Shown: positions 6,550-35,270 of the stretch, piece after piece
How the letters are laid out: each line of letters begins with the position of its first letter
Position numbering within the stretch: position 1 is the first letter of the stretch
Origin: Psammoneis japonica
Taxonomy: Eukaryota
NCBI GenBank assembly: GCA_008632985.1
Contig: QPGO01000385.1
Location: 1 to 35,270, forward strand
Direction of reading: 5' to 3'
DNA: 35,270 nucleotides
Program-made: the position numbers and the translations under genes
Notes under the pieces: model-generated
Seen by the model: the letters and a program-made list of their open reading frames with translations, nothing else
Told to the model about the DNA's origin: nothing
Database searches by the model: none

Positions 6550-6555
6550 CTCCCC
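6550..6555 (-). other. Polypurine tract of copia element 1
   Basis: GGGGAG on the minus strand abuts the LTR TG. Confidence 0.8.
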
Positions 6556-6559
6556 AGTT

Positions 6560-7635: not shown

Positions 7636-7654
7636 AGAGGGCAGGAGAGGTGGG

Positions 7655-7851: not shown

Positions 7852-7854
7852 TTT

Positions 7855-7993
7855 GGCTCATGCCGCCCGTCTTGTTCCTTCTCCTGCGGCTCTCTAGTGC
7901 TGTCTAGAGATCTTCCAGTGATGGACTGGAATGGCTTTGCTAGCGGATGCGCAAGCCTCATTCCCAAAAAACCCAAGCTGGAATGGCAGGGCC
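7855..7993 (-). repeat. Ngaro repeat B1 (139 bp)
   Basis: Near-identical to 7497-7635. Confidence 0.92.
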
Positions 7994-8063
7994 TTCCAGT
8001 GCCACCCACAGTGCCATGCACTCTTGGGAGGGTGGGTGGGTTGAGGCTGGAGGGCTGTGGTGA

Positions 8064-13677: not shown

Positions 13678-13874
13678 AGCATTAAAAACTGTCCGGCGGC
13701 TTCTTGCTCTTTGTTGCTCTTCGGAAGAATGAGTGAAACAAGCGAGAGAAAAAGAGCAAAAACCGTTGTTTGCTCGCCAAGCTCGCGCAAGCACGTTCAA
13801 TTTTGAATTCAAACGGTTTGTATGACCCAACGGTCAAAAAACGGGTCATTTGCCTCGTCGTGCTACACAAGGTG
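13678..13874 (-). repeat. Ngaro repeat A1 (197 bp)
   Basis: Near-identical to 7655-7851. Confidence 0.92.
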
Positions 13875-13876
13875 GG

Positions 13877-16800
13877 TTCGATGTACTTGCACGGAGACAG
13901 ACACAAGGTGCCGTCAGGATCCCGGGAGAAGTCGCAGCCCAGATGGAACTCAATCTGTCCCGCACCCTTGAGCTTGAACTTGCACTTTTCCGTGAGGGTG
14001 TCGACGAAAGATTGAGGATCCTTCATGGCAATGGCAAGGTCATCCACACAAACGGCAACACATTCGCAGTGGTCGCCGTTCCTGTGCATCCAAATGTCGG
14101 GTTCGGCGCGGCAGGGGAAGAAACCTTCAGCTCGCAGGCAGTCGGCGAAGCACTCATGCCAGCGGAGACCGGAGCTGCACAGTCCATACAGGGCCTTGTA
14201 GATGACAAGAATGTGGCCTTCAAGTTTGCCAAATTCGGGTCCAGCTACAATGCACAGCTTCTCCTTGGTGGTGGCTTCAAGGCAGGCATTGCCAATGTTG
14301 GTGGCCCATGTCTCCAACTCATTGAGTTCGGCCAGGAAAATCATCAGCCAAAGGCCAGGAAGGGAGACTGCTCCAGAGCAGACACCATTGATGGGTACGT
14401 CCGTGAGGTGTCCATCGGCCACAAGTCGTGCCTTGTGGTGGCCGTCGTGTTTCACGTTGTGCACTGGGTGCACTCAGATCTTCTTGTGTCCCGCAGGAGG
14501 AGTGGAAGACTCAGAGGGCCTGCAGTCATGAAAGACTTCGTAATCATCAAGTTGGTCCATCTCGAGATTGGTTGTGTCTCCCCATTTGCGGTTGCCGTTG
14601 CATTCGTCTGGGGACATGGCGTGTTTTTAGTTCCGGGGAACCTCGCATCCGCACTTGCAGCGAGGTGCAGTGCGGAAGGAGCGAAGCTTGGCTTGGTTGG
14701 CCATGTGAAACAGCTTCTTCTGGCACCTTGCGATGGTGCGGAACCGCTTCCAGCCATCAGTGTCAAGAAGTCCGTTCTCTCGTGCACAGATGGCGCAGGT
14801 GACAGGGTCGTCCTTGGCGATGATGGCAAGAGGCTCGGACGTGATCTCCCCACTTTCCCATTCAAGCATGATGTTGTAGCTTGAGCCCTTCCAGGTTGGG
14901 TCATGAGGCTTCAGAGGTCCTTCGTGTGACACAATGCATCAAAATTTCCAAACAGTGGTGTCTTCGTCTTCTTGCTCGATGTGATTCATGATGTCATTGC
15001 AGGCCAGGACTTCCTCGCATTCGTCGTTGTTGACAGAGCAGACAAACTCAGTGAGCTTGGGGTTGCCGTTCACTTTCCAGTTGTGATCTTCGATGGCCTT
15101 GATGATGCAAGCTCTGTGGCGTTGTCCATCCTCTTGTGGCTGCATGAGGAAGGTGCGTCCAATGATGTCTTTGGATCAAAAACTGGCATCTTGGGTGTCC
15201 TGATCTCCCCGTCAGGTGAATCGACGGGGTTGTCGTCATGGCAAGATTTGATGATGGGTTCAGGTGGCTCCCCATCAGGAGGATCAAGAAGCAGGTTTTG
15301 AACGGAAGGATCGGTGGCAGCGGATTGTACATTGGACCGGCAGAGGATCTTCTGAGTGTCGTCAGAAAGAATCTTAAAGGTCATCTGGTGGCCGACGTGC
15401 TCAGCAATGCCAACAAAGCGTCCACGCAACTCACGGGATTCGGACGGCCAATCGGAGTCATCGAGGTGGAAGCACACGGGTTCCCACCAGTGAAAGCGGA
15501 GCAATGGGCTGATGTCTGGGGTGGAGCCAGCAAGAGTCTCGAGGGGTGTGCGCCTGTGGAGACATGGGGACGCGGTGTGGTTGAGCATGAAGCAAACGCA
15601 CATGAGCGCCAGCAGCCATGTGTGGGCAGGCGAACCGAAACGGTCCATGATGGTGTTTGCCATGTGCTTCACGTTCTGGTGTCGGCATTCGGCAAAGTTT
15701 TGGTGTTGCTGGTGAGGCTCGCTTTGCCAGCTGGAGATGAAGAGGGCTCGTAGAATCCCGAGCACCTTGTTGCTGATCTCAACTTGAGCACGGTCGCTGA
15801 TGAGTTTGGATGGAGCACCACACTCACAGATCTGATCCTCGAGTGTGTTGACAAACTCTTTGTCGGTTTTGGTGCCGCAGACGTCAGTGACGGTAGACTC
15901 GGTGCCAACAAACAGTTGGGCACTGGTGCAACCAGAGTCGATGGCCGGGGTGTCGGCACAAATGGTGTCAGTGGCGACAGGCTCGTTGCGGCGGTGCACA
16001 TCAAGGGCAGGGTTGGGCGATTTGCAGGCCTTCTTAAGGTGTGCACCGGCGGGCATGCGGGCACATTGCGCGGTGCAGTCAAAAGCATGACGAACCGTGT
16101 CGGCAGGTTGGAAACCAAAGCAGGGCCAAAGAGACTCACAGGGGGGGTCCTTGGGCTGCACATTGCGCTCCGGAGGCAGAACGTCATCATCCTTGGGGTC
16201 AATTGCATGCAGATGACACTCGCAGAACACGTCTTCATTTGGAATGAGGTGGTCATCGAGGGCGGACGCGTGATCAGCAGACAAGGAGGCAGACATGATG
16301 GCCTTGTTGACAACGACACGACAACGGCAGTTGCCGCACTCCTCAAATGGGTTGGCAGTGGGATCGTCCTGTGGGTCAGAGATCGCGTCGTGCCACTGGT
16401 CGTCGTCAGCGACAGAGTGATCGAGGACGGAAGGGTCCCATGTGTCATCACCGGTGAGGATGACATGTGGCAGGGTGTCCCATTTGTCGTCAGTGCAGGG
16501 TCGCATGGCAACACAAGGCAGGCCACCCTTGATGTCAATTGGGATGACATGGCCATCAGTGGTGGCAATGCGCTGCAAGCCATTGGGCACCTTGACAGAG
16601 TGATCGTTGACATCATGTTTGTGCCATTCGAGCTGGCCACAGGAATGAATGGTCTTGCCTTTTCCCGTGCATGCGCACTGATGGAGGATGGCAATGACGG
16701 GACCACGCTGTGTCTCAATGACGGCACCAGCGGTGACAATGGGGATGTCCACCAATTGATGGTCGTCAATGCCCTGAACGTCGACTTGGCGAGAGGTGCG

Positions 16801-18375
16801 TGCAATGACGCGAATGTCGTCGCCAGCAATGCCGCCGTTGGATCCACGATCAACTAGAGCACCAGTGCGTGTGGAGCGATGAGCGGAGGCAGAGTGAATG
16901 ACATTGTGGTTGTTGACACGGCGGCAAGTGCAGCAGTCAAGTTCCATGTCATCTGGAGGAGCAGGTGAGGTGGAGGGAGCGGCGGATGGGCCCGGTCGAC
17001 CAGCGTTGGGGGCTTGGTTAGGAGACAACAGGCATTGCAGATCACCGGGTGGCAGTGGCTTGCGCTTGGTGAGATGTGCCAGAATGGGATTATCTGAAGT
17101 GGCACCCACATTTGGAGCGTGATCACCAGAGTCAGCAGGAGTCATGGCGGACAAGTTGACATCACCGTCACTCCCAAGTTGTTGGTCGTGAAGGTTGACC
17201 GCAACGGACTCATGGTGGTTGCCGGCTCGTGGGTTGCGGGGAGGCGGACGAGAATGCTCAAGGATGATTGCCTTAGAGGAATGGGGCAACAAATCCCAAA
17301 TCCGTTGGTGGTCGGGAGGGAGACGTTTCCATTGGTTGCCGGTGAGGCTGGGACCATGGGTGCAGGCAGCATTGGCCTGATGGACGTCAATGTTGCTGTC
17401 GATGTCATGGAACACATCATCGGATGGTTCCTTGGAGCAGACGTCGTGTGTGCATGTGGTGCGGCGGGGAGCTTGAGGTGTCGTCTTGGGTTGAAACGTG
17501 CTGTCGCATTGAGCCGTGGCGGAGAGGAGCAAGCCACAATGTTGATCGCATGTGAGGCTCTTGCCACTCTGCGTGCGATGTTGATCAGCTTGGTTCTTGA
17601 TGGCGCGGAGTTCCTTGACAGGATGTGCGGCATTCTCGAGCATGACATGCTTCTGTCCTTCAGAGAAGTGGTCACTGGCCGGGATGAGGGCCTTGCACTT
17701 GCGCAACTGATCCTGCCAATGAAGGATGAATCCGTGGGTCGGACCTTTCCAAGCACCATCGCCAAGGCGTGTGGTGGCAAGGTGCGTGAGCAAGGTGGAG
17801 GACTCGACAGATGCACGGGTGGAGGCGAGCGCATGCTTGGACAAGGTGCGGCAGATGGTCTGGGTGTCAGAAGACCCCACATTTTCGTGAATGAGAGCCT
17901 TGCCCTTGTCGGTGAGAAGGATGCGTTCGAAGATGGCGAACATGTGCTTTTGCTGTTCAGCAAAGAGCAGTTTGTCTGCGGGGCTGGTTGGTTTGTACGA
18001 CGAGTCTAGAACGCACTCGACGTCTTGGGCATGGGCTTGTGCCACAAGTGAGGTGTGCCAAGTGTGCCACTGCTTGTTGGATTTGAGAGCCGTGAAAGCA
18101 GTGGGGTCACGCTTGATGCCTCGCTTGAAGTCTTGCACTGGGTCGCGTGCCTTGGTCGGGTTGGTGACATGCGGAGGTGCAAGAGGTGAGCTGCCGATGG
18201 ACACAGAAGACATGTGGTCGGGGCTGAGGCGGCAGGCAAGGAACTCATCATGTGTGAACAACGAGGAGTCATTGGCAACATCAAGGCCTTTGTGTGCTTT
18301 GACAATGCACAGACCAACCAGGGCTGCTAACATGTTCTTGTGACCTTGGGGCAATGGGATCACATTGGTGCCGTC
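13877..18375 (-). pseudogene. Copia 1 gag-pol: gag, protease, integrase and RT (degenerate)
   Basis: FKRGIKRD (gag); LVDRGSNGG (protease); ATDT, SDRAQVE and QNFAE (integrase DDE); HKARLVADGH, KALYGL and CVDDL (RT). Confidence 0.93.
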
Positions 18376-18817
18376 TGCAACACACAGCTGCTGACAAGAG
18401 TCAATGTATCACGGCGACGTGTTACAGCCTTTAAATGTCACAAAGGGCATGACAAAAATGACCTTTTGTCTGCATGCATGCTGCATTGTGAATTCACAGC
18501 GGAGTGGTTCATCGCAACCATTGGGAGGCCAGGGGTTCGAAACCCTGAGTGGTGGTTGTCTGCAGCAACGTTGATCACTGTCGAACGCGTAAAACTCTGT
18601 GCAGTTCTGCATGTTCCTTCGCACGTACCCACACTGTTCTGCCAAAAACGTGCAGTGTCGTGCACGTTAGTAAAGAGCCGCATGGACGCGTGACACATGG
18701 GGAGGAGTGCAACACACAGCCACCAACAAGAGCCAATGCATCACGGCGACGTGTTGCAGCCTTTAAATGTCACAAAGGGCGTGACAAAAATGACCTTTTG
18801 TCTGCATGCATGCTGCA
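18376..18817 (+). mobile_element. TRIM (terminal-repeat retrotransposon in miniature), 442 bp
   Basis: 110-bp LTRs at 18376-18485 and 18708-18817 with TG...CA ends; PPT GGGGAGGAG at 18699-18707; 4-bp TSD CGTC at 18372-18375 and 18818-18821; non-coding interior. Confidence 0.9.
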
Positions 18818-18989
18818 CGTCATCACACTCAAGCGAGTCGATTTGGGAAGGTGTGAACGTGAACAGTTCTTGGCACTCATGGGTCAAAGGCAAACGAAGA
18901 GGGCTTCCAGCACCTTGGGCAAGTGCGGTTCCAACAATGTGCTTGAAACCATTGGTTTGTTGCTGATGAGCAAGAACCATGGTGGACAA
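18818..18989 (-). pseudogene. Copia 1 gag N-terminus, separated from the rest by the TRIM
   Basis: Removing 18376-18817 plus one TSD copy joins ...IDSLECDD-GTNVIPLPQGHK in frame. Confidence 0.75.
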
Positions 18990-19360
18990 GAAACGGTGTC
19001 AGGGCAAGCGATTCATGTCAGGACGTGGAGGCAGACTTGAAACTTGAGTGTGAATGGACTTGACTTGAAACAGACTTGACTTGAAATCTCGAACTGTCTT
19101 AAAATCAGAAGGCGCCGGGTTGTGCTGTCCTGTTCATTGTCAAGTGCTAAACTTCCTGTCCGGTCTGCAGAGTTGTGCCGGCACGTCCGAACCCGCAGCC
19201 AGCGGCGCTTTGGGTTGCTTGCGAGCGGAGCAGCGGGTTGCAAACCCCTGCAGGTGAGCTGACCAGAGGTGGAAAAGACTCTCGAGCCGTTCTCATTTTG
19301 TGTTGGCTGGATTTCCCGATCATGCTGGCCAGTTGACGCAGGCGTTGGGTGCTGTGGACG

Positions 19361-20780
19361 AATGAACAAACTTGGGAAAAACACCTTTGCCCCAACGCAG
19401 GCTGCAATCACCACTGCTTGCTCTCACAGTCATCCTCGTGGACCCAGCAGAACTGCAGAGCACCAGCAGTCTGGGGCAGATCAGGCACAATGGACTTGGT
19501 GTGCTTGTAGAGTGGCAGCAAAGCCGCAGTCCAAAGAGTGGGTTCAAGCTCTTGGCCGTGAAGACACATGTGTGTGTGTCTTCAGTGACAAAGATCTTTG
19601 AACATGTGGGGTTCTTGACCGTTAACCGTTGAATGGGCATGTCAAGGGATGAGGATCAAGGACAGACTTGGATGCAACCATTGAATGCATGTCTTCAGCG
19701 ACAAAAGGCAGCGCAATCAATCCAGACATCCAGCGGCAAGAGGAGACTTGACGGTGACGTTAAATTCCTGCCGATGCCTGGTGTTGAATGCGCGCAGACT
19801 TGCCAATGTACAAGTGGAGTGTGTGCGGAGGTCCACGCAGAATTGAAACAGCATTGTCGGTAAATCAACGATGATGATGGCGGTTGCTCAATGGGTTGAC
19901 AATGAGCAAGACTGTCAATCCAACAGAAATTGAAGGCAAATGGCAAGAATTCAAACAATGACTCCTTGCTGCTGTCCAAATGGCAGATGAGTCTCCGCTC
20001 AGAGACCATCACAGGAGCCGAAAGACGTGTGAGTCGGTGCAATCGGGCCACTGTCATTGTTCTTGTGAGCCATGTGGCTCGAAAGCAAACTGCGTCGCGT
20101 GCACACGCGTGGAACTAAAGAGCACACAAAACTGTGCGCGGCAAACTAAATTGGCGCGCGACATTTCGCGCGCACCTAAATCCTGTTCAAATCCTGTCAG
20201 GAAATGCCAAAAAAAGTCCAGAATTTCGTGATTTTTTGACAGGCTGGTCCTGATTCTACTACGGTGTGAAGGATTCTATGCAGTTTCTGGATGTTCCTGC
20301 CTTTTTTTGGCAGTTCTGCTGGGACCTGGAACTCCTTCCACCAGTGCGTGAATTTGGTTTTCCGGAGCCCCATTCTTTTGAGGGGCAGCACAGCACGCTG
20401 TCACATGGCACATGCGCGCACTTGCGACATGTCGCCAATGTGAACAATGGTTGGATGCACTGCATGGGCAGTTGCCCTTTTGTGCACATGTGACAGGTTG
20501 TGAGCAGCCATTCCCTTGCCTCTGTGGTGCAGCCCAGAGCCAAGTTGTGTGCAGATTTTGGCCACAGAAGGAGGAGAGGCGGTGGTGCTGGGTGGGCGGG
20601 CACATGATTTGTGGAAAAAGGTGATGGAATGATGTGGGCAAGGAGGGGGGCAGCAGAGCAAACACAGCTTGTTCTGCTGTTGAAAAAACAAAAGATTTGC
20701 ATTGTCAGACAGCTCCATGGTTGGCATGAATTGCAAGTTTTGTGGAAGGAAGTTTGAGTGTTGCGCAAGTTGCACTGTGT
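19361..20780 (+). repeat. 1.42-kb direct duplication, left copy
   Basis: Near-identical to 25364-26781; ends at the left boundary of the Penelope-like element. Confidence 0.93.
19921..20199 (-). repeat. 5' LTR of copia element 1
   Basis: 279 bp, colinear with 6271-6549, followed by the TSD GGAAA. Confidence 0.92.
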
Positions 20781-20888
20781 TTTCGGGGTTGTCTAACGCA
20801 CTAACAGCCTTTAGCGTAACAGCAATCTGTTGAGAGTTGCCTGACATACAAAGCTCGATGATGTGAGCTTTCGCTTTTGCTTCATCAG
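20779..20888 (-). repeat. Inverted partial pLTR (110 bp)
   Basis: Reverse complement of the pLTR 3' end (25254-25363). Confidence 0.9.
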
Positions 20889-21337
20889 GCTTACGCCCGT
20901 TTTGAGTTTTTTTGTTTTGTGTTTTGAGTTTGTTCACTTGCGTGCTCACTGCAGCAGAGCATGCTTCTACATCTGACAGCAGCAACATCAACTCGCTCTT
21001 TCTCCAACACCGTTGGAGTTTTTTGAGTTGATGATGCCTCGCTCATTCTCATGCGCGCTTCGCGTGCATTCGAGATCTATGATCCACACGATTGACTCAC
21101 CATGCGCACCGTGCACGGGTGGATCTTTCTGATGCGGCTTTTTCAATGCCTGTAACGTCAGCTGTGACGACAGCCGTAGAAAAATGCCGATTTCGAATTT
21201 TTTAGCTCGAAAAACAGCCGACAACACTGACAAAGCAAAAGCGAAAGCTCACATCATCGAGCTTTGTATGTCAGGCAACTCTCAATGGATTGCTGTTGCG
21301 CCAAAGGCTGCCAGCACATTAGACAACCCCGAAAACA
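20888..21337 (+). repeat. PLE 5' pseudo-LTR (450 bp)
   Basis: Colinear with 24915-25364. Confidence 0.9.
21217..21276 (+). ncRNA. Hammerhead ribozyme copy in the 5' pLTR, core mutated
   Basis: Same fold as 25244-25303, but the core reads CTGACAA instead of CTGANGA. Confidence 0.65.
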
Positions 21338-21357
21338 GTGTGTGTGGACTTCCAACA

Positions 21358-22821
21358 ATGACTGCAGCCAGCGCGTCCGCTCCGACAACCCCACCTGCTC
21401 GCAACAGACGAAACAACGCAGCCGCACGCACCGTGCGATTCGCCACCGCAGCAGCAGCGACAATGACGGCGCCTGCGGTGCCGTCAACGGCGCCTTCGGT
21501 GCCACAGATCTTGGCAGCTAACCAACGTAAGTTGGACAAACTAGCCCCTTGTCGCAAAGCGATTGAGACGCAGCTAACAGGATTCAAGGACATTGTCGAG
21601 TCACTAGCCACTCGTATGATCACTCAGTGCGGGCTTGTAAAGAGCAGAAAGCTGAGTCTATCGGCTTTCCCCGGCACTGATGACAATCCATGCATCCCCA
21701 AATGTTCCAGGCTCAATGTGAACCTCACACATGCGGACCGGCTCAACGATGATGCTGCTGCCCAAGAGCTCGTCCAGGAGATGAAAGACCTGGTTGCATG
21801 CTTCGAAAAGGATGCAGCCAAACTTGTGCACAAGATGGCCTCACGTGAACTTGAGGTTGTGAAAACAAACCGAGTACGAGAATTGGTCGAAGCTAGCCTT
21901 GTTCTCTTCCAATTCTACATTGACCATGTAAAAGAGTTCAAAGGCTCTACAGACCCAACAACGCGTCAACTCAGTGGAGTGCTGCTCATGCCCTGCTTGT
22001 GCGACGTGCTGCCATCGAGCTTCCTGAGAGACCACCTTGAGACTTCTCCCAAAGAAATCATCAAGGAAGTTGAACGCCAGCTTCAACATGAAGGACCCTT
22101 CAGTCCCGAAGACAGCACCCCTCCCTCAACTCAAGAGAGCACCGAAGACAGCACCCCTCCCTCAACTCAAGAGAGCACCGAAGACGTGCACACACAAGAG
22201 GATGCCACGCGCACTCAGGCCGCACTGGTGGCAAACTTGAGCCCCCTGCTCGAAAGTGAATGCGTGAACCACGAACTTTCAACAGGTGAGAAAGTCACAA
22301 AAGAAGAAGTGTTCAAGGAAATGAAGCAGTTCTATGAACAAGTCACCATGCAATTGCAACACGCCCTGGACAAAGAAGAACGATTGAAATCGGTCAACGC
22401 CAAGCTAGAGGCAAAGTGGAAACGCTGCAAGAAGGAACAAGCAGCTGACCTCGTCGCAACAGCTCTTGAAAACGAACCGACAGTTCAATCCCCCGCCCTC
22501 GACGAGTCAATCAACAAAAAGATTGACAAAAAAGTCGCAAGCCTCAAAAAGCTCCACAAGAAGGCAAACCGTCGGCAAAAAAACGACAAGGGCGGTCGGG
22601 AAGCCCCACCGGCACGAAAGAACGACGTAGCAAAAGACAACGAAACGCAAAAAGGAAAAGGAAAGCGGAAACGCCAACCCCAAGCCTCGAAGACGAATGG
22701 GAAACCATCCGCCAAGAGACAAAAGAACAAAGCCAAGAACCGCCACGGAAAAAGAAAAGGGAATCACGGAGGACAGCACAGAGGCGAGCAAAGAGGCAAG
22801 AGAAGCAACAGGCGAAACTAG
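21358..22821 (+). CDS. PLE ORF1: coiled-coil protein with a Lys/Arg-rich C-terminus
   Basis: Open frame 21184-22821; the first ATG after the pLTR is at 21358; helical charged segments and a basic tail. Confidence 0.7.
   Translation: MTAASASAPTTPPARNRRNNAAARTVRFATAAAATMTAPAVPSTAPSVPQILAANQRKLDKLAPCRKAIETQLTGFKDIVESLATRMITQCGLVKSRKLSLSAFPGTDDNPCIPKCSRLNVNLTHADRLNDDAAAQELVQEMKDLVACFEKDAAKLVHKMASRELEVVKTNRVRELVEASLVLFQFYIDHVKEFKGSTDPTTRQLSGVLLMPCLCDVLPSSFLRDHLETSPKEIIKEVERQLQHEGPFSPEDSTPPSTQESTEDSTPPSTQESTEDVHTQEDATRTQAALVANLSPLLESECVNHELSTGEKVTKEEVFKEMKQFYEQVTMQLQHALDKEERLKSVNAKLEAKWKRCKKEQAADLVATALENEPTVQSPALDESINKKIDKKVASLKKLHKKANRRQKNDKGGREAPPARKNDVAKDNETQKGKGKRKRQPQASKTNGKPSAKRQKNKAKNRHGKRKGNHGGQHRGEQRGKRSNRRN
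22106..22185 (+). repeat. 36-bp in-frame tandem repeat (2 copies plus a partial copy)
   Basis: CCGAAGACAGCACCCCTCCCTCAACTCAAGAGAGCA x2, encoding EDSTPPSTQEST. Confidence 0.9.
22578..22613 (+). promoter_or_regulatory. Putative -1 programmed ribosomal frameshift signal (ORF1 to RT)
   Basis: A-AAA-AAC in the ORF1 frame at 22578-22584, then a short spacer and a GC-rich hairpin (CGGT-c-GGG...CCC-c-ACCG). The -1 frame is open from 22527 into the RT. Confidence 0.65.
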
Positions 22822-24840
22822 AGGCGAAACTCCTCTACCAACGCACCGAGCTCCCCATCAAAATTGCCGAGAAACAATCGGACCGCTACTGCGTCAGAAT
22901 CCATGGATTCACACCAAATCCTGACGCCCCCCTGTGGGAAAACGTAGCAACGGCTATCGGCAAGATGAAAGCTACGGCACACTTCAACCGCCTGGACAAC
23001 ATGTCTTGCCATAACCTCTGTACAAAGCTGCAACCACCCCCGGGTACTGGATTACTGTTAGGACTTGGACACAAGTTTTGTATAGAATCAAGCACCCCGT
23101 TCCCACACAACCGCCGAGGCGTACAACGCTTCCGACGAACCATACGTCTACGGAACTTTATCGAGAACTCCGAACTCGTAAACGACGAAGACGGATACAA
23201 CCCACACCTATACGTCCCCTCTGATTTCGACCCTCCACCGATTGAAGACGGGACAATAGAACTTCGAATGATGGACTTTGCAAACAAGATAGACAGAGCC
23301 AGTCGAACAGCCAACCGCCAACGACCCCGCTTTAATTTGACGCCTCAGCAGCATCGAACCCTGTGAACATTGCAAAACGACAGACGATTCGTCGTGTGTC
23401 TTACGGACAAGAATCTTGGTCCAGCCATCATGGAGCGCGAAGTNNNNNNNNNNNNNNNNNNNNNNNNNNNNNNNNNNNNNNNNNNNNNNNNNNNNNNNNN
23501 NNNNNNNNNNNNNNNNNNNNNNNNNNNNNNNNNNNNNNNNNNNNNNNNNNNNNNNNNNNNNNNNNNNNNNNNNNNNNNNNNNNNNNNNNNNNNNNNNNNN
23601 NNNNNNNNNNNNNNNNNNNNNNNNNNNNNNNNNNNNNNNNNNNNNNNNNNNNNNNNNNNNNNNNNNNNNNNNNNNNNNNNNNNNNNNNNNNNNNNNNNNN
23701 NNNNNNNNNNNNNNNNNNNNNNNNNNNNNNNNNNNNNNNNNNNNNNNNNNNNNNNNNNNNNNNNNNNATCGCGAACGTACATCCGAGACTCTCACCAAGT
23801 CCTCGCCGACTTACGATCACTTGGAAAGCTGCCACCAGATGCTAAGCCATTCACAGTCGATGCAGTAGGAATGTATGCCAATGTCAACACCAACCATGCT
23901 CTGGAAACATTCCACCGGTGGTTCCTTGAGTACCCCGATGAGATGCCAAAAAACTTCCCAGTTGACTTCTTCCTCACCGCACTGGAAATCGTCATGACAA
24001 GAAATGTCATCCAGTTTGACGATACCTGCTGGCTCCAAATCGATGGTACAGCCATGGGAACCAGCACAGCCTGTATGTACGCCACCATGTACAAGGGCTC
24101 TCCACGAACGCCAAAGTACACTAACCCGATTCAACTTGAACCTGCCCTATTGTGGACGATTCATAGATGACGTACTCGGCGTATGGACAGGCGGTGAAGG
24201 TGAAACATGGGAGAAGTTCAAACATGAACTGAACAACTTCGGCACCTTGGAATGGGGGAAACCTCCGAGCTCAGTGACCAAGTTGTATTTCTGGATCTCG
24301 ACATCAAGATTGGAGCAAACCGGTGTGTTAAAACAAGAACGTACCAGAAGGCCATGAACCTGCACCTCCACATGCCCCCAAGCTCAGCACATCCACCTGG
24401 AGCACTGAGAAGCATTGTGCATGGAAACCTTTGGACGTATCGGGCACAAAATCCAAACAACAAGGATTGCCAAAAAACAGTGGCCCAGTTCTTCAACCGG
24501 CTGATAGCGCGAGGGCCACAACAGAGAGCACCTCAAGAACCTCTTTGTGGATGCAGCCGCCACTGTCCACCGGAAAAAGGCCCCACGCTCCAACATCGCT
24601 GACCCATCCAACACTCTTTTCTTTCACCAAGAGTGTCACCCACGCGGGATGGCTCGCACTGAAATAAGAAGAGCGTGTGAAAAAACCTGCGAAGGGCACA
24701 GCGGGTTCAACCGGTTAGCAGTGGCGCACTCAAGACCCAAAAATCTAAGAGACGCCCTCACACGAACACCACTAAAGGAACCCAACGGGCAGCGTGCTTC
24801 AGATGTTGTTAAAAAACTCTCTGATGCACCGGAGCTCTGA
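22584..24840 (+). pseudogene. PLE reverse transcriptase (one stop, several frameshifts, spans the assembly gap)
   Basis: Motifs TDKNLGP, DAVGMYANV, GTAMGT, RFIDDVLGVW, VFLDL, YQKAMNLHLHMPPSSAHP and SRPKNLRD; it ends without an endonuclease domain. Confidence 0.9.
23444..23767. other. Assembly gap
   Basis: Run of N. Confidence 1.
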
Positions 24841-24914
24841 TTCGGCGACTCCGTCGCGACGAGTCACCTCCGGTAAAAAACTCAAACGGGCTGCCTGCCG
24901 CGCCACGGCGCTAT

Positions 24915-25364
24915 GGCTTACGCCCGTTTTGAGTTTTTTTGTTTTGTGTTTTGAGTTTATTCACTTGCGTACTTGCCACAGTAGAGCATGCTTCTATGTC
25001 TGACAGCAGCAACATCAACTCGCTCTTTCTCCAACACCGTTGGAGTTTTTTGAGTTGATGATGCCTCACTCATTCTCATGCGCGCTTCACGCGCATTCGA
25101 GATCTATGATCCACACGATTAACTCACCATGCGCACCGCGCACGGGTGGATCTTTCTGATGCGGCTTTTTCAACGCCTGTAACGTCAGCTGCGACGACAG
25201 CCGTAGAAAAATGCCGATTTCGAATTTTTTAGCTCGAAAAACAGCCGACAACACTGATGAAGCGAAAGCGAAAGCTCACATCATCGAGCTTTGTATGTCA
25301 GGCAACTCTCAACAGATTGCTGTTGCGCCAAAGGCTGTCAGTACATTAGACAACCCCGAAAACA
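24915..25364 (+). repeat. PLE 3' pseudo-LTR (450 bp)
   Basis: Colinear with 20888-21337. Confidence 0.9.
25244..25303 (+). ncRNA. Type I hammerhead ribozyme in the 3' pLTR
   Basis: Stem I GCC-GACA-ACA / TGT-a-TGTC-a-GGC; core CTGATGA; short stem II GC-GAAA-GC; GAAA; stem III GCTC/GAGC; cleavage triplet CUU. Confidence 0.8.
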
Positions 25365-26781
25365 ATGAACAAACTCGGGAAAAACACCTTTGCCCCAACG
25401 CAGGCTGCAATCACCGCTGCTTGCTCTCACAGTCATCCTCGTGGACCCAGCAGAACTGCAGAGCACCAGCAGTCCGGGGCAGATCAGGCACAATGGACTT
25501 GGTGTGCTTGTAGAGTGGCAGCAAAGCCGCAGTCCAAAGAGTGGGTTCAAGCTCTTGGCCGTGAAGACACATGTGTGTGTGTCTTCAGTGACAAAGATCT
25601 TTGAACATGTGGGGTTCTTGACCGTTGACCGTTGAATGGGCATGTCAAGGGATGAGGATCAAGGACAGACTTGGATGCAACCATTGAATGCATGTCTTCA
25701 GCGACAAAAGGCAGCGCAATCAATCCAGACATCCAGCGGCAAGAGGAGACTTGACAGTGACATTAAATTCCTGCCGATGCCTGGTGTTGAATGCACGCAG
25801 ACTTGCCAATGTACAAGTGGAGTGTGTGCGGAGGTCCACGCAGAATTGAAACAGCATTGTCGGTAAATCAACGACGATGATGGCGGTTGCTCAATGGGTT
25901 GACAATGAGCAAGACTGTCAATCCAACAGAAATTGAAGGCAAATGGCAAGAATTCAAACAATGACTCCTTGCTGCTGTCCAAATGGCAGATGAGTCTCCG
26001 CTCAGAGACCATCACAGGAGCCGAAAGACGTGTGAGTCGGTGCAATCGGGCCACTGTCATTGTTCTTGTGAGCCGTGTGGCTCGAAAGCAAACTGCGTCG
26101 CGTGCACACGCGTGGAACTAAAGAGCACACAAAACTGTGCGCGGCAAACTAAATTGGCGCGCGACATTTCGCGCGCACCTAAATCCTGTTCAAATCCTGT
26201 CAGGAAATGCCAAAAAAGTCCGGAATTTCGTGATTTTTTGACAGGCTGGTCCTGATTCTACTACGGTGTGAAGGATTCTGTGCAGTTTCTGGATGTTCCT
26301 GCCTTTTTTGGCAGTTCTGCTGGGACCTGGAACTCCTTCCACCAGTGCGTGAATTTGGTTTTCCGGAGCCCCATTCTTTTGAGGGGCAGCACAGCACGCT
26401 GTCACATGGCACATGCGTGCACTTGCGACATGTCGCCAATGTGAACAATGGTTGGATGCACTGCATGGGCAGTTGCCCTTTTGTGCACATGTGACAGGTT
26501 GTGAGCAGCCATTCCCTTGCCTCTGTGGTGCAGCCCAGAGCCAAGTTGTGTGCAGATTTTGGCCACAGAAGGAGGAGAGGCGGTGGTGCTGGGTGGGCGG
26601 GCACATGATTTGTGGAAAAAGGTGATGGAATGATGTGGGCAAGGAGGGGGGCAGCAGAGCAAACACAGCTTGTTCTGCTGTTGAAAAAACAAAAGATTTG
26701 CATTGTCAGACAGCTCCATGGTTGGCATGAATTGCAAGTTTTGTGGAAGGAAGTTTGAGTGTTGCGCAAGTTGCACTGTGT
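25364..26781 (+). repeat. 1.42-kb direct duplication, right copy (includes an extra copia LTR at 25924-26202)
   Basis: Near-identical to 19361-20780; starts at the right boundary of the Penelope-like element. Confidence 0.93.
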
Positions 26782-26823
26782 CAAAAGGTGAAGTCAAGTC
26801 ACAAAGATGATTCTTGTGCTGAA

Positions 26824-27069
26824 TGACAGAAATTGAAGATGACTGGGGTGGAAGAAAACAATGACTCCTTGTTGCTGTCTAAACAGCAGATGAGCCTCCA
26901 TGCAGAGGCTGTTGCAGAAGCCAAAAGACTGGTGTCATGATGTTGATGCTGCTGTTGTTGTTTTTGTGAGCCAAGTGGCTTGAAAGCAAAACACATTGCA
27001 CACTGCATGCGGAACTGAGAGCACACACAATCATGTGTGACAAACCAAAATCTTGTTCAAATCCTGTTG
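26824..27069 (-). repeat. 3' LTR of copia element 2
   Basis: Shares ACAGAAATTGAAG, GACTCCTTG.TGCTGTCTAAACAGCAGATGAG and TTCAAATCCTGT with the element 1 LTRs. Confidence 0.8.
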
Positions 27070-27618
27070 CTCCCCAGTTTGCTCGAGGGGTCAACAGCAA
27101 CAGATTTGAGGTCAGACTGGTTGAAAGCCTTGGGATCAAAGTTCCAAAACATTGGAGGACAAAGGAGATTCCAGACCTGGAAGCAGCTCCAGTGCTTGCT
27201 GAGGATGTCAGCTGGGTTGCGGGAACCTTCGATGAAATGAAACTCAAGGAAACTGGAGGCAATCACCTCACGCACACACAGTGGAACAAGAGGGCAGTGT
27301 GTTGCTTGTGCAACTTGGAGTGCGGGATGGCAGCATTGTCCACAACTGACTTGTTGTCCCCAAACATGCAACACATTTCATGAGTGGGGATGCCAAGGTG
27401 ATGCGCAGATCAATGATCTGCTCAATGCATGTCCTTGTGGCAACAAACTCAGATCCATGCATGGCAGTCTCAACTGTTGCTTGTTTTTTGGAGAACCAAT
27501 CAGCCGAAACTCATTGAGAAAACAAAGGATGCTGGTGACAGAGTGTCTGGTGAGCATGCAATGGAACAAGTTTGCATCGATGCAGTGTGTCATGGTGATG
27601 AACTTGAAAGTGGCTCAG

Positions 27619-30198
27619 CCTTGGCATGTCATCAGCTGCAATTGGGCACCGGGACTGGCTTCCTCAGGGACGTCCACACCAGCCACCCTCACAGTGAGTC
27701 CCTCTGGTTTGCATCAGTCTGATCTTTTCTCCAATGTGTTGGTGGATGCATCACCATGTCCCAGGATTGATGGAGTGTTGCCTCTGCAACGTGACAATGA
27801 CCAGTTCCTCATGGACGTCGTTTTGGAGTCGTTGCAATTTTCCTCCCAGGAAACAAGGTGGATCAACTGTTGTCATCTGTGCCTCAAGGTGCTCACAATT
27901 TCTGACATTGCTTTGGCAGATGGCCGCCATCTGGATGAGTCTAAAGTCTGCAGTGATCCTGCACATCTCAGCAGTGTCGGCACTCTTGACAATGTTGAAC
28001 AGACTGAACCTTGTCACAAGGCATGGGCTCCCTGGTTTCGGCTTTGCGAAATGTTGTGCAAAGATGGGTCTACAAGTTTATGAGCTCCTTTGGGTGACTG
28101 GTCAGTTCCTCCTTCCCAGATGTGCATGCAAGCTTCTGCCCATTGGTCTCCAGAAGAATTGCATTTGTGTGTGAGATCTCCTTCTGGATTTGACGTTTTT
28201 CTCATCCAAGACACAGTCGCCACATCACTGCATCAGACAGAAACTGTTCCTGCTCCATCAGAATCATCCTTTCCAGTGGAGACAGACTCTGTGGACGATG
28301 GACGTTGGAAATGTGTTCCTCACAGATCGTGTTTGACAGTTGACGCACCACCTCCGTCACCAGAGTTTTTCAGTGACCTTCTGCAAGCACTGTCTCCCTG
28401 GGAGTCCGTCTTTTTCAAGGACACAGAATTCCATGTCTCCCTTTTTGAATTGGTGGATTGCATTGTAACAAATTGACTGACATCAGGCAGTGATGGGTCC
28501 GTGATTCTTCAGGATGCTGCATTTGGGTGGACTGTTGCATTCAATGGACAACCATTGATCGACTGTGCCGGTCCAGTGTTTGGCAGGAATCCATCTTTGT
28601 GCCATGCGGAAGTGTCATGTGGATTTCTCTCCCTGACAAGATTTGTTTTCCGGTTGCTCGAGTGTTGCAAAATGTCATCTTATGAGGGAGTTGATGATTG
28701 GTGCGACAACAAGGCTCTCATTCATGTCATTTCCCGCCCAACTGACAGCCGTCCTTCCATTGATCCTTCACCCCACATGCACCCTGACCCAGACTTTCAC
28801 CTTTGGAAGCATGGTGCTAATGTCTTGTTGTCTGATTGGGACATTGTGAACGAAATCTGTCAGACTTTCATGGATGTCAAAAGTCTTCTAAACACATCCT
28901 CCTCTGGTCAAGCTCCCGCTCTTGAGTGGCCACTCTTGAGTGGGTAAAAGGACATCAAGATCGTCATCATCCGGTTGAAATCCTTCCTCTCAACGCTCAA
29001 ATTAACATGCGTGCTGACAAGCTGGCTGGCCACTTCCAAGGTCATTGTGAGTTTGACATGGCCACAACACTCCCACTCCCTCACTGCCAGTCTCATCTCC
29101 ATCTTCGCAATGGGACCATCACCGCAGGTCTTAAATCTACAGTCTGCCATGCAGCTGGCTGCGGCTCCCGCCCTTCTTGCATGTGTTCGAGAGTGCAATG
29201 ACTGGGATGAATCCACCACAGACAAGATGGGCTGGAAGGTGCATGCCACATTGGTGCAATGACATTCCAAGAAACACGTGTCTGCCGTTAAGTTGATCCA
29301 TGAACTGCTGCCAACAAACAAGATTGCTCACTGATGCAATCCAGTCCGGCCACATCATTGTCTCTCTTGTGACTGTCCAATGGAGGACAGGGATCACATC
29401 CTTTGGTGTCTGGCCAATGAAGCATGGAGACACAAATTCTTGCAGGGTTTACAAAAATGCTGCGACAAGTTTGATGCAATGCCTCCTCTCCGGGATCTTC
29501 TTTTGTCCTCAACAGAAGCATGGTCAACAGTGAGATTGCATGCAATGATGATGTTCCCCAATTGTCACATCCTCTTTGGTGCTCCTGGTCAGACATCAGA
29601 TGGAGACAAGTGTTCAATGGCTGGCATTCTACCCAGTGGAATGTGTTTCAGGAGATGCACCTTCATGACATTGGACTGTTGGACAAATGCAGAAAAAAGA
29701 ACCGCCTGCCTCCCAATTGGGCGGCACAGATTAGGACTCACATTTGGAAATCCTGGTGGGCTGTGGGAGGAGCACAATAAAAAGGTCCACGGTCATGATG
29801 CAGACACCAGGCAGTCAACCTTGAGAAGACAGGCAGAGGCCAAGCTCACGGCTGTGTGTGACAAAAGACAAGAGTGCCTGGCAAAAGACAGAGACACGCT
29901 GATGGATTTGGCAGAGGATCACCGATCCCACTCCACTTTGCGGACAATGAACTGGATTGCAATGGTTGAACCACGGCTGAGAGACAGCCTCAAGAAAGCA
30001 AAGCGCTCTGTGCTTTGTGGCACTCACTCTGTGGCTGGTTATTTTGGCGGGGTGTCACCTTCTGGTGACACCCACTCTGGCCAATCTGTGCAGGCTCCTG
30101 CCACACCAAAAGGTGCACTGGGAGTGTGGGTCAGCCGGCACCAGCCTGGCTGGCAAAGGAGTGACAGCACTTTAAAAACAGATCTGTTTTTTTTTTTT
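27619..30198 (+). mobile_element. 5'-truncated non-LTR retrotransposon (LINE) with RNase H and a CCHC finger
   Basis: 11-bp TSD AAGTGGCTCAG at 27608-27618 and 30199-30209; motifs SDGS, CDNKAL, WVKGHQD, NMRADKLA and CLSCDCPMEDRDHILWC; ends in T12. Confidence 0.85.
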
Positions 30199-31993
30199 AA
30201 GTGGCTCAGGCGCATCTTGCGGAAGCAGCTCTTCCACCTCCCCATGCACAGATTGGGCCCAGTCACACACCGGCTTGGGAAGGTCCGAATGGCTGGGATC
30301 CTCGGTGTGCACTTGGAGGGCACCATGACACATCTTGGAGAGCAATCTGCAGATGCATTTGGCATGGTCTGGGTGACCTTGACGGGTCACTGCATGGGAG
30401 CCAGACAGGGACATGACAGCCGTGGCAATGTCAATGCAACCAAAGGATGCAGCCCATTTTGCAGGGAGCCAATCAAGGACTGGAATTGGTGGATGCCATC
30501 CGGTCTGAGCAATTCAGAGGTGTTGAGCTCAGGGTGGTCTCCCTTGTTAAGGGGTGAAAGCACATCAGTGCGGGGCTTCTCCCCAAAGAGGCACGCGCAG
30601 TTGTCAACCATGCGCTCAATGCACTTGCGAGGAGCAAGGCACAGGGTGCCATCTGGATCACCGGTGAAGTCGCAACCAAGATGGAACTTTAATGGTCCAG
30701 TGCCCTTGAGCTTGAACTTGCATTTCTCCATGAGAGTGTCTGCGCAAGACTGGGGGTCCTTCATGGCAAAGGCCAGGTCATCCACATGCACTGCCGCACA
30801 TTTGCAGTGGTCGCCATTCCCACGCAGCCAGATGTCAGGTTTGGCTTTGAACAGGAAGAAACCTTCGGCACGCAAGCAATTGGCAAAGCATTCATGCCAC
30901 CTGAGGCCAGAGCTGTGGAGTCCATGCAAGGCCTTGTGGATGACAAGGATGTGTCCTTCCAGCCAGCCAAATTCGGGGCCTGCTGCAATGTGCAGAGTCT
31001 CCTTGGTTGCAGCTTTGAGACAGTCATTCCCAATGTCAGTGGTGCAAGTCTCCAGTTCATTGAGTTTGGCTGGGAAGATCATCATTCGCAGGCTGCAGAG
31101 AGACACTGCTCTGGAACAGACACTGTCGATGGGTGCATCTGTGAGGAGGTGTCCATTGGCAACAAGTCCTGCTTTGTGCCATCCATCGTGTTTGACATTG
31201 TAGATGAGATGCACCCCAATCTTCTTGTGTCCTGATGGTGGAGCGCTGGAGTCCTTGCAATGTCCACAGTGGTGGAAGACCTCACACTCATCAAGCTGAG
31301 TCATCTCAATGTCCGTTGCGTCTCCCCACTTGCGGTTGCTGTTGCACTCATCAAGGGTGGCCAAGGCATGCTTGCAGTCACAGGGCACTTCATGCCCGCA
31401 CTTGCATCTTGGCGCAGTGCAAAAGGAGCACAACTTGGCTTTGTTGGCCATGCAGAACAGCTTCTTCTGGTGCAGAGCTGTGGTCTGGGAGCATTTCCAG
31501 CCATCTGTCTTGAGAAAAACCATGTTTGCATGCATGGATGGTGCAGATGATGGGATTGTCCTTGGCAATGATGGCAAGGGGTTCAGACATGATCTCCCCA
31601 TTCTCCCATTCAAGCATGATGTTGCAGCTTGAGCCTTTCCAAGAGGGACCATGGGGTTACAATGGTTCTTCATGCAAGATGATGCGTTGGAACTTCCAGA
31701 GGGTAGAATCCTCATCTTCTTGCTTGATGTGGTGCATGATGTCATTGCAGGTGAGGACTTCCTTGCATTCGTCATTGTTGACAGAGCAAATGAACTTGAC
31801 CAGTTCCGGGTTGTCTCCAATTTTCCAGTCATGGTCTTCAATGGCTTTGACAATGCAGGCTCTGTGGCATTGTCGGTCCTCTTGTGGCTTCATGAGGAAG
31901 GTGCATCTGATGATGTCCTTGGGGTCAAAGACCAGCATTTTGGGCATCCTGATTGCCTCCCCATCTGGTGAATCTGGTGAATCCTTGGAGTCG

Positions 31994-32228
31994 TGTCACC
32001 AAAGATGCATCAAAGTAGCTTGTGTCAGAAAGAGCAAGAGCTCAAGGTTGCAATGGAATGGCAGAAGTCATTGTCAAAAGTTCTCCATGGAGAAATTATG
32101 AGAGAAAACTGAGGAGAGATCTCAACCATCAGATTTGTGAGAAGAGAAGAGATTTGAATCTCAATGAAACAAGCAACACATGGAAATGTCTGAAATGATG
32201 TTGACAAAATGACTTTGACATTTTGACT
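31994..32228 (-). repeat. Putative 3' LTR of copia element 3
   Basis: Lies between the PPT and the copia 2 breakpoint, with plus-strand ends TGTCA...TGACT. The partner LTR is not in the window. Confidence 0.6.
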
Positions 32229-35200
32229 CTCCCTCTCAACTGCAGAGCTGCCAGCCAGACAGACTCTTCTGACCGGATTCAAACAGAGCTTGGACCAACC
32301 CCTTTGTGAACTGATCTGCAAGCTGAGAGTTGGTTCCTGCAGGCTCAACAACAATCTCGAGTGCTTCAACTTTAGTGCGGAACCAATGACAGGGATTTCC
32401 AATGTGTTTGGCACGTGGAGACATCTTCACCATTTTTGCAAACTTGAGACATGCTTGGTTATCCTTGCAGACAATGGAGGAAGGAATTGCGCCATCTTTC
32501 ACATCAGAAAAGGCTTCAGACTTGGTGGCAGTGGGAGCAGAAACATTCTTGCACCCGAGTGCATGACACTGAATTTTTTTCTAAATTTCTCGGATCGGAA
32601 TCAAATCACGCATGCCAGCCGACAGTGTCAGATGTTCTGCTTCCACAGCAGAGAGAGCAATCTGCATCTGCAGCTTGGAGACCCACAAAACAGGACAGTC
32701 GCAATGCAAAATGATGCATCCTGTGCAAGACTTGACACTCACGGTGTCTTGGAAGTTTTCATCACCATGGAGTCCAGCAAAATTGGCATCCACAAAACAA
32801 TCAACTTGTTGGTTATCTCCAGGGCATAGATGGAGGCCCTTGTCCTTGGCACCTTGAAGACAATGAAGAATGTGCTTCACTGCAACAGCATGAGAGTGTT
32901 TGGGAGCACAGGAGAAGCAAGCGGCTTGATGGGTGGCGCACGTGACATCGGGACGGGAGTTTGCCGACAACTGCATGAGCATCCCAACAACAGATCGGCA
33001 ATCCCATGGTTTGGCAAAATCGGCTCCCTCTGAATCAGCATGGCACAGAGAAGCAGTGCATGGTGTGGGAGAAGGACGACAATCTTCCATTCCAGCGGCC
33101 TTGAGGACCTTGTCGGTCAGACCTGGTTGAGCCAGCAGGAACTCCTTGGGTCCAGTCTTGTGAATCTTGACACCAAGGAAGTCACCAACTTCTCCTTCAT
33201 TACAAAGCTCGAAAATGCGATGTTGTTCTTCCTTTTGAATTCCCAGAGCAGTGGTCTTGCGTTCCAGAAGGTTTCCATTGGCACCGGTGAGGACAGCACA
33301 ATCGATGCACACGACATAAATCACACCATCCTTGAAAAACAGACATGGGTCTACCGCTGACTGAACCCACCCTCATTCAAGCAGTCCTTTGCGGAGCTTT
33401 TTGCAGAAGCATTTCGGGGCTTGTTTCAACCCACAGAGCATCTTGAGTAGCTTGAGAATGATGTCAGCACCTGAAGCAGGGCCAAAGCACTTGGGAGGTT
33501 CAACACAAATGTCTTTCACAACATCAGCTTGTGCAAACGCATTTGTGCAGTCGACTTGACGAGTTGTCCACCCTTCTTGCAATGCAGTGCTCAACAATGG
33601 ACGAACAGTCAACCACTGGACCACTGGAGCACAAGTCTTGAAGCAGTTGACTCCCTCTTGCTGCAAATCACCACGACAACAAAATCAAGCCTTGAATTTC
33701 AGCGGAGCACCGTCGGGTGAGCGTTTCAACTTAAATGCCCACATTGACTTCAACACATTCACAGAGGAATCGCGCTTGACAAATTTCCAAGTTTCATGAT
33801 GAACAAGTGCGGCCACTTTGGTCTTCATGGCCTCAACGCATTGCTTGGCAAACTCACCCGTGAGAGCTTCTCGCACATTTGGCGTGTCATCATTTTTCTT
33901 GGCCTTGGCAGTGTAGACACGAGGGTCTTGAATGCCCAATTGTCCACTGTCATAGCAGGTCTAGATCTCAGCAAGACAAGTGAGCTGGGGATGGTGTCCT
34001 CCAGCATCCAATGGCTCAACTGAGGCTAAATGGACTTCATCGGCAAAACAAGTTGTGGTTCGCCTGCCTTTGTTTGATCTTTGTGAGCGACACACGTTCT
34101 GCTTAGTTGTGGGTGGGACTGGGACATCTGGAGCTGGGACTGAGATGTCCAATGACTCCGTGCCAGGTTGATGTGGCGAGTGCACAGGAGGCATTGAATG
34201 ACCAACTGCTGACTCGCTCGTTGATGGATTGGGGTTTTGCGGTGGCTGCGATGGTGGTTCCTGGGGTGGCACCAATGGCAAGTTGTCAGAATTCAATGGC
34301 ATTGAAGCATTGGGATGTGCAGATGGTGGTGGTTCAATGACCGGAGTGATGGGCTGCAAAGATTTCATTGCGGCAGGCTGCTGATGATGTGCACTCCTGA
34401 CAAAATGCTCACGTTCTTCATGTCACCATTTCTGCTTGAGTTCTGCAGGAGTGAGCCAATCGTCTTGAAGAAACAATTGCATGTTGCTCAAATCCAGTGG
34501 CATCTGAATGACATTTTCCAAACAGAGCTCTTCCCAGTGTTGGTTGAGGGAACCGTGGTAAAGAGATCGTCGAATGCCACATGACACTGAGGAGCAATGG
34601 ACCCGGCATTCAGGTTCAGGACCAGCAGAACCTCACTGGCGTGAACCAAACTGAGACCAAGAAAAACACCACACCATGATCTTGGTTGCCAACGCGGCAA
34701 TTTCTGACCTTGCTGCAACTTGGGATCCAGGATGTAGACAGGACAGCCCCAAGCATGCAAATCAAGCAAACGGTGGCATGGGATGGTGGATCCAGTAAAA
34801 ATGTCGGCAGGACAAAGCCCATTTGATCCCGGAGTGTTGTTGTAGATGTGGGTGGCACAGTTGACTGCCACAGGCCATGGGGAGCTGTCGATGCCACCGC
34901 GCCAATGGATGGAGGCATGGAGGATCATGGCTTGTGCCACATTTGATGTGGAACACATGGGCCACTCAGCAATGCTGTTCTGGTGATGGGCGTTTGTTCC
35001 ACAATGGTGGACACATTGCTGAGATTCACGGATGTGGGCAAAAAACTTGTTTGCCTTGAAAGCACCATTGTCTGTGAGGTGCTCCTGCATGATGACGCCA
35101 TGACTGAGAGCCATCTGCTCACAACCTTGTTTTGCCTGTGTCATCTCAACTGCAGAGAAACCAACTTGATGCTCAACGTGCATGAACCCAGAAGCATGAT

Positions 35201-35270
35201 CAATGAAAATGCAGCCGGCAACATGCTGCTGAGAGGAGGGTTTGCCGCAGGAATTGCAGGTGCAACCCCC
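31994..35270 (-). mobile_element. Copia element 3 (different lineage), 3' portion: IN, RT, RH and 3' LTR; continues beyond the window
   Basis: IN motifs TDNGAF, AHHQNSIAE and WGCPVYILD; RT motifs WAFKLKR, APVVQW and CGLKQAP; RH motifs FVDANFAG, WVSKLQ and QLADQFTKGL; PPT GAGAGGGAG at 32229-32237. Confidence 0.9.

Follow-up and report, generated by a model that had tools for sequence, protein, structure and literature searches.

The window analysed here is a stretch of 35,270 nucleotides from Psammoneis japonica (GenBank assembly GCA_008632985.1, contig QPGO01000385.1, positions 1 to 35,270, forward strand). It holds two copia-like long terminal repeat (LTR) elements on the minus strand, designated copia#1 and copia#2, and between them an insert of ~4.6 kb that is a Penelope-like element (PLE). 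A direct repeat of target DNA adjoins both ends of this insert. Its two copies, A and B, are each about 1.42 kb long and, together with the junctions that they form with the PLE, are the main subject of this report.

The insert and the repeat that flanks it

The direct repeat was recovered by both a repeat finder and self-BLAST (1420 nt in copy A and 1418 nt in copy B, 99.0% identity, E = 0; Table 1). In a global alignment, the likeness of A and B stops exactly at the ends of the insert, and the sequences outside the copies are mutually unrelated on both sides. The alignment contains 12 substitutions in 1418 aligned positions (0.85%), all 12 of them transitions and 10 of CpG type, together with two single-base indels, one in an A run (20209) and the other in a T run (20302). 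When CG is taken as the ancestral state, eight private derived changes fall to A and four to B. Public reads, in the form of k-mer contigs from three runs of one sample, were compared with the window over 21400-27300. One 326-nt run contig over the flank part of the segment combines A-type and B-type states, indicating that both variant sets are present in the reads. Taken together with the private changes, this argues that the differences between A and B reflect real lineages and not consensus noise, and the two copies appear to be evolving separately. Summed word depth in the run contigs reaches 10^4-10^5 over the copia part and ~50-230 over the flank part, values for which the stretch offers no single-copy baseline.

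Copy A is the 5' end of copia#1 plus its flank, and consists of 560 nt of 5' untranslated region (UTR), the 5' LTR, the target-site duplication (TSD) of the copia element and 581 nt of flank. The two 279-bp LTRs of copia#1 (6271-6549 and 19921-20199) are 90% identical by self-BLAST and alignment, and its 5-bp TSD, GGAAA, is found at 6266-6270 and 20200-20204. Copy B retains the same junction of LTR, GGAAA and flank. Since B keeps this junction, and since A and B differ by 0.85% against the 10% that separates the copia#1 LTRs, B derives from this locus and is a copy or an allele of it. The possibility that B is a piece of another copia element was rejected on similar grounds, as it carries the TSD and flank of copia#1 and shows ~1% divergence versus 10% between the LTRs. 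A preliminary description of the locus had reported the repeat abutting a PLE, a few transitions and two homopolymer indels between its copies, and an origin of the duplicated segment in pre-existing copia 5' UTR, LTR and flank; all of these statements were borne out.

Within the insert (20778-25364), the repeat finder and self-BLAST resolve an inverted 111-nt piece, a 450-nt repeat, the body of the element and a second 450-nt repeat. The two 450-nt repeats are pseudo-LTRs formed by a partial tandem, and an inverted, 5'-truncated copy lies beside the upstream one. The same arrangement is described for typical PLE insertions, including those of the canonical, endonuclease-bearing (EN+) Penelope (PMC8557442; PMC3846280). 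The insert thus has the canonical build of a PLE, and the preliminary assignment to this group is upheld by the pseudo-LTRs as well as by the reverse transcriptase (RT) and the hammerhead-like motif described below.

The junctions were then compared base by base with the ends of the element. On the left, copy A ends in ...CACTGTGT and the insert opens with the reverse complement of the PLE 3' end, (TG)TTTTCGGGG, with 2-3 nt shared. On the right, the PLE ends in ...CCCCGAAAAC(A) and copy B opens with AATGAAC, with 0-1 nt shared. The outer end of the inverted 111-nt piece is the exact 3' terminus of the PLE, and the 3'-terminal base of the PLE also marks where the 5' pseudo-LTR gives way to the body, between 21337 and 21338. 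Recurrence of the same terminus at this boundary and at both outer junctions suggests that three joins used one defined RNA 3' end. Because both outer junctions fall at the exact PLE 3' terminus, both target strands would have been primed on PLE RNA, with 0-3 nt of microhomology. The geometry of the junctions would place the 3' end of the top strand 1.42 kb to the right of the 3' end of the bottom strand; that is, the two 3' ends would have overlapped.

A separate observation concerns the breakpoints. At both of them, a C occupies the place on the broken strand that would come next after the 3' end used for priming (19359-19361 on the left; 20780 / 26782 on the right). The one on the left is the bottom-strand C of a CpG, and the one on the right is C26782. 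This pair would fit nicks arising from the repair of deaminated cytosines, with a chance expectation of 1/16 and an ambiguity that stems from the junction microhomology.

Table 1. Positions of the features discussed in the text, in window coordinates
Feature	Position	Strand	Remarks
Copy A	19361..20780	+	copia#1 5' UTR 19361-19920, 5' LTR 19921-20199, copia TSD and low-copy flank 20200-20780
Inverted 111-nt piece, a copy of the PLE 3' end	20778..20888	-	94.6% identical to 25254-25364; 90.1% to 21227-21337
5' pseudo-LTR	20888..21337	+	450 nt; 5'-truncated upstream tandem copy; 94.9% identical to 24915-25364
ORF1	21133..22818	+	562 aa, open; no Pfam family; basic C-terminus
RT ORF	22527..24837	+	DKN motif, RT motifs; in-frame stop 23364-23366; N run inside RT
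N run	23444..23767		324 nt = 108 codons, in frame; only N run
3' pseudo-LTR	24915..25364	+	450 nt; 3' end ...CCCCGAAAAC(A), directly followed by the opening base of copy B
Hammerhead-like ribozyme motif in 3' pseudo-LTR	25247..25298	+	custom descriptor; predicted cleavage between 25291 and 25292
Copy B	25364..26781	+	runs on into original downstream DNA at 26782
copia#1, host copia-like LTR element	6271..20199	-	LTRs, TSD; nested 6.4-kb insertion 7497-13877
copia#2, second copia-like element, downstream	26856..35270	-	RVT_2 in 30387-31889, SH3_retrovirus in 34488-35270; extends beyond the window

Coding content and age of the element

Two open reading frames (ORFs) occupy the PLE (Table 1). 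The product of the second is an RT of the PLE type, with an N-terminal DKN and further RT motifs: its translation includes TDKNLGPAIMERE, which holds the DKN, and continues past the N run with GTAMGT and FIDD. Relative to the run contigs, the RT ORF shows three frame changes, at the G runs at 24095, 24254 and 24513. The PLE RT family comprised 797 proteins at E<=1e-3, and 29 near-full-length relatives, picked across the range of identity, were aligned. The window RT is 44% identical to P0001, a full-length relative of 660 aa that can be aligned with the window before as well as after the N run and terminates behind the RT. The closest named Atlas clusters combine DUF8422, HTH_animal and RVT_1 and are mostly from rotifers, which we regard as a lead only. 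Neither the RT, ORF1 nor the large copia ORFs gave a match in sequence searches of Pfam, NCBIfam and PDB. ORF1 also contains a perfect 36-nt tandem repeat (2.2 copies, 22106-22185) that encodes a repeated STPPSTQESTED peptide.

An endonuclease was sought in all ORF pieces of at least 50 aa in six frames of 20700-25450, and none of the 48 matched any endonuclease family at E<=1. Nor was an endonuclease domain found in the five relatives that were scanned. Homology to the RT reaches to ~75 nt from the 3' pseudo-LTR, and the 108 codons hidden by the N run lie inside the RT by alignment. The PLE of the window thus counts as endonuclease-less (EN-less), as had been proposed, and the full-length relatives, which end after the RT, agree with this.

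The N run has a length that bears on the integrity of the assembly. With the Ns counted as codons, the distance from DKN to RDS is 127 aa, the mode of the family (127 in 11 of the 29 relatives, 126 in nine, range 125-139). Likewise, the last aligned residue before the run and the first after it lie 111 residues apart both in the window and in P0001. The run is therefore more likely an exact-length replacement of known sequence, since an unsized scaffold gap would rarely show such an exact, in-frame and modal length. The preliminary description had named a mis-join of separate haplotypes or loci at this gap as the finding that would overturn its reading, and this scenario is weakened by the 108 in-frame codons and the family modal spacing. 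A classic false duplication at the gap was also considered and was rejected, as the edges of the N run are non-overlapping halves of the RT. None of the run contigs reaches across the N run of the window copy. One from another PLE copy does cross the corresponding position, with 256 letters where 338 would be expected; it represents a different, deleted copy.

All three frame changes in the RT, as well as both indels between A and B, are differences in homopolymer length. These may be consensus errors of an assembly made with a homopolymer-prone technology, in which case the RT would be intact but for the stop at 23364-23366. Given an open ORF1 and an RT with one stop and three G-run frame changes, the PLE appears to be young, which fits a divergence of 0.4% per copy. 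An old PLE associated with a young duplication was rejected for this reason, the ORFs being nearly intact.

The repeats within the element have diverged further. The pseudo-LTR pair differs by 5.1%, with 23 transitions in 23 substitutions, and the inverted piece differs from the PLE 3' end by 5.4% and from the 5' pseudo-LTR beside it by 9.9%. With four shared derived states versus one, the inverted piece groups with the 3' pseudo-LTR. Without exception, the substitutions between repeat copies are transitions, mostly in a CpG or CpA/TpG context, and TG-versus-CA alternatives are frequent among the PLE copies in the run contigs (21400-25364). These repeats evidently carry a strong signature of cytosine deamination, of the type associated with methylation.

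The hammerhead-like motif, its relatives and the neighbouring elements

A custom descriptor identified a hammerhead-like motif in the 3' pseudo-LTR, in which stem I is followed by CTGATGA, a single bulged A and a short stem II, and these in turn by GAAA, a stem III of 4 bp and TT. Cleavage by this predicted ribozyme would occur 73 nt before the PLE 3' terminus. The corresponding core in the 5' pseudo-LTR is degenerate (CTGACAA). The descriptor used is a loosened one, the stricter first version having missed the window motif. It was applied to relatives of the PLE in metagenome contigs, where 80 of 544 confirmed stretches were kept (L001-L080, each <=10 kb). The descriptor matched 47 of these 80 loci on the RT strand and not one on the antisense strand, and shuffled sequences gave 0.05 of 80; in the window it matched at 25254. 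The conserved family motif, of type I and located downstream of the RT, is made up of CTGANGA and a bulged A, then a short stem II and GAAA, and lastly 3-7 bp of stem III and TT.

Covariation was counted by segment in the 39 of 48 sequences left after identical ones were dropped. Stem positions that the descriptor does not require were nonetheless paired in nearly all of them (stem I position 4, 35/39; stem III position 3, 39/39; stem III position 4, 35/39), with four to six pair types each, i.e. with covariation. Position 7 of the core is variable (C in 17, T in 15, A in 7), as expected of a hammerhead. RNAalifold gave no structure on a MAFFT alignment of the motif, the 3' half of which was misaligned. 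The Rfam 15 models matched no family in 18500-27500, in 24900-25400 or in 20 of the 80 loci, and no hammerhead in L073 and L026. The motif supports the assignment of the element to the PLE family.

In two of the 80 relatives, L073 (3264-3382) and L026 (4605-4670), reverse-complement telomeric repeats, (CCCTAA)n, stand 57-61 nt past the predicted cleavage site. The terminus of the window PLE lies 73 nt past its own site, which suggests that the junction with copy B sits where these relatives meet the chromosome end. In approximately 20 of the 37 metagenome loci that reach 4.5 kb, the first ~60-635 nt (mostly 123-191 nt) recur as the last; L009, L012, L023, L033, L038, L042, L047, L050, L059 and L066 are among them. 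Such contigs resemble collapsed units of ~4.5-6 kb from head-to-tail tandems, or circles of that size.

Based on these features, we place the element with the EN-deficient PLEs, probably of the Athena/Coprina kind. Like them, it has a DKN-type RT ORF with no GIY-YIG domain, preceded by ORF1, and its relatives end in reverse-complement telomeric repeats. Its terminal repeats carry a hammerhead-like motif comparable to that of fungal and protist EN-deficient PLEs, for which type I is described, helix III being large and a base bulging out 5' of helix II (Cervera and de la Peña, PMC4209133). Coprina has been reported from a diatom (PMC13159263). Unlike the EN-deficient PLEs, the window copy is interstitial, lying between copia elements, and no telomeric repeats occur in the window or at its 3' end, which reads ...CCCCGAAAAC; its hammerhead motif is also not scored by the Rfam models.

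The copia elements on either side deserve brief description. Self-BLAST aligned an RT-homologous stretch of copia#1 (13878-15222) with one of copia#2 (30616-31974), the latter with RVT_2. An open frame of 1112 aa on the minus strand of copia#1 (15070-18408) occupies the position of gag, protease and integrase; it shows a weak integrase-like match to copia#2 (E = 0.047) and no Pfam or NCBIfam match. The insertion nested in copia#1 (7497-13877) is GC-rich (57%) with a strong GC skew and is bounded by direct repeats of 197 nt at 7655-7851 and 13678-13874 (95%). On its minus strand it has ORFs of 900 aa and 432 aa, for which Pfam gave no confident match, RVT_1 being reached at E = 0.019 only.

A possible origin of the duplication and its implications

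The TSDs of PLEs are described as 8-10 bp long or absent (PMC3846280), whereas the duplication in the window measures 1,418-1,420 bp. In this respect, and in having no GIY-YIG domain, the window PLE is unlike canonical EN+ Penelope. It more closely recalls L1 insertions with 'large TSDs' of 1-10 kb and L1-bridged sister-chromatid duplications, in which target DNA is likewise duplicated in direct tandem with a retroelement precisely at the junction; an inverted 5' piece would also arise as in twin priming. However, the first nick at an L1 insertion is made by L1 itself, and the cases on record are somatic or experimental. The window PLE, in contrast, has no endonuclease, both of its junctions are at the 3' terminus, and the event would have been a germline one, the copies having since diverged by 0.85%. 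The rDNA-specific R9 retrotransposons of rotifers, which are site-specific and encode an endonuclease, reportedly have an 'exceptionally long TSD' of ~126 bp, an order of magnitude shorter than the window duplication. In the literature searched, a limited library, no PLE was reported to have a flank duplication in the kilobase range. Kilobase 'TSDs' would therefore seem precedented for retroelements, through L1, and not for PLEs.

We consider it about an even chance that a young, nearly intact EN-less PLE inserted between the two copia elements in a single event that also duplicated 1.42 kb of its target. This most likely event is a single retrotransposition that bridged two pre-existing 3'-OH ends overlapping by 1.42 kb. 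An EN-less PLE would make no nick of its own, so the free, overlapping 3' ends would have been present already. Candidate sources of such ends are breaks at different positions on sister chromatids, replication intermediates and nicks that lie far apart on opposite strands. Priming at the 3' end of PLE RNA would have started from two 3'-OH groups, that of the top strand where the segment ends on the right and that of the bottom strand where it ends on the left. The complementary DNA (cDNA) extending the bottom strand would have copied one complete unit before switching to a second RNA, of which it took 450 nt, giving the 5' pseudo-LTR, and that extending the top strand would have covered 111 nt only, giving the inverted piece. 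Joining of the two cDNAs, followed by fill-in or replication, would leave the 1.42-kb segment on both sides. Bridging of this kind would be the interstitial counterpart of the attachment of EN-less PLEs to chromosome ends.

The preliminary description had proposed a giant TSD produced from widely staggered ends. It is supported in part, in that junctions at the 3' terminus fit two 3'-OH primings, but a single staggered break is only one possible geometry, as ends on sister chromatids or replication intermediates fit equally and have precedent in L1. Its premise that normal TSDs are under about 30 bp needs the qualification that kilobase 'TSDs' have precedent among retroelements, in L1, though not among PLEs.

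Several points weigh against a single bridging event. The internal repeats of the PLE (5.1%, 5.4% and 9.9%) are far more diverged than A and B (0.85%), and one event would therefore need RNAs from different source copies or hypermutation specific to the element. It should be noted that every model assigns the inverted piece and its neighbour, the 5' pseudo-LTR, to one event, and that these two differ the most, so that template heterogeneity is needed anyway; from this, and from the nearly intact ORFs, we infer that the pieces of the PLE were copied from different source RNAs and that the element is not old. According to published descriptions, EN-less PLEs are in general confined to chromosome ends (PMC8557442), and no TTAGGG-type repeat was found in the window with up to one mismatch allowed. 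The locus is also a single case, the metagenome contigs of the relatives being too short, with no usable flanks, for a survey of duplications. Lastly, the run contigs are too short to join A and B (the longest placed piece is 402 nt, X1), and the tandem and inverted structures of PLEs are known to upset assemblies (PMC8557442). The structure rests on one assembly locus and may be an assembly error.

The most direct form of such an error would be a chimera, in which haplotypes or read populations differ in structure, the assembler switched from one to the other inside the 4.6-kb PLE, and A and B are alleles. Besides the trouble that PLE structures cause to assemblies, the N run lies inside the PLE, and the divergence of A and B, with its homopolymer indels, resembles allelic variation or the consensus error of long-read or 454 data; the run contigs show both variant sets, and paralogues and alleles are indistinguishable there. 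We nevertheless regard a chimera as unlikely. Both junction types exist, so it would require two independent PLE insertions in the same orientation, 1.42 kb apart, one on each haplotype, and the N run is precisely as long as expected and keeps the frame. If the locus does prove to be an assembly chimera, it will serve as a useful warning about PLE-containing regions.

Two insertions also figure in a further scenario, in which PLEs entered homologous chromosomes between 19360 and 19361 and between 20780 and 20781, and unequal crossover then produced U-A-PLE-A-D together with a lost reciprocal product, U-PLE-D. This would explain a pseudo-LTR divergence of 5.1% beside 0.85% between A and B, the former being as large as that between unrelated copies of the family (0-3.5% for contigs placed at >=95%). 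However, two young insertions in the same orientation within 1.42 kb would have had to come together in one individual. Moreover, the inverted piece and the adjacent 5' pseudo-LTR, which this model assigns to one insertion, differ by 9.9%, which makes repeat divergence a poor marker of events, and the inverted piece shares its derived states mainly with the 3' pseudo-LTR. We consider this scenario quite improbable. Slightly less probable still is an event at the DNA level, with no retrotransposition at this site, in which break repair or a template switch of the fork stalling and template switching (FoSTeS) or microhomology-mediated break-induced replication (MMBIR) type duplicated A and took up an existing genomic PLE as filler. 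The 0-3 nt of junction microhomology would suit such an event, and an old genomic copy used as filler would account for the diverged internal repeats. Yet both ends of the filler match the PLE 3' terminus to the base, as expected of priming at an RNA end and not of arbitrary switches, and the coding regions are nearly intact.

EN-less PLEs are the closest retroelement relatives of telomerase. If the structure is real, the locus would be a naturally fixed case of an EN-less element that joined two pre-existing DNA ends and, in doing so, created a 1.4-kb segmental duplication, an outcome so far documented for L1 in tumours and cell models. More generally, and with a little less than even confidence, we propose that EN-less PLEs can integrate internally by the same act that caps telomeres, their RNA being primed at any free 3' end and the two capped ends then being joined. 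Were this true, the geometry of the lesion that preceded the insertion, such as breaks on sister chromatids or replication intermediates, would be preserved in the flanks, as a duplication of kilobase size at this locus and as deletions at others. Among interstitial copies of the family, TSDs and deletions should then vary widely in length, and often be long, instead of there being one fixed, short TSD. Endonuclease-independent retrotransposition, and its role in segmental duplication, would then become directly measurable in a natural germline.

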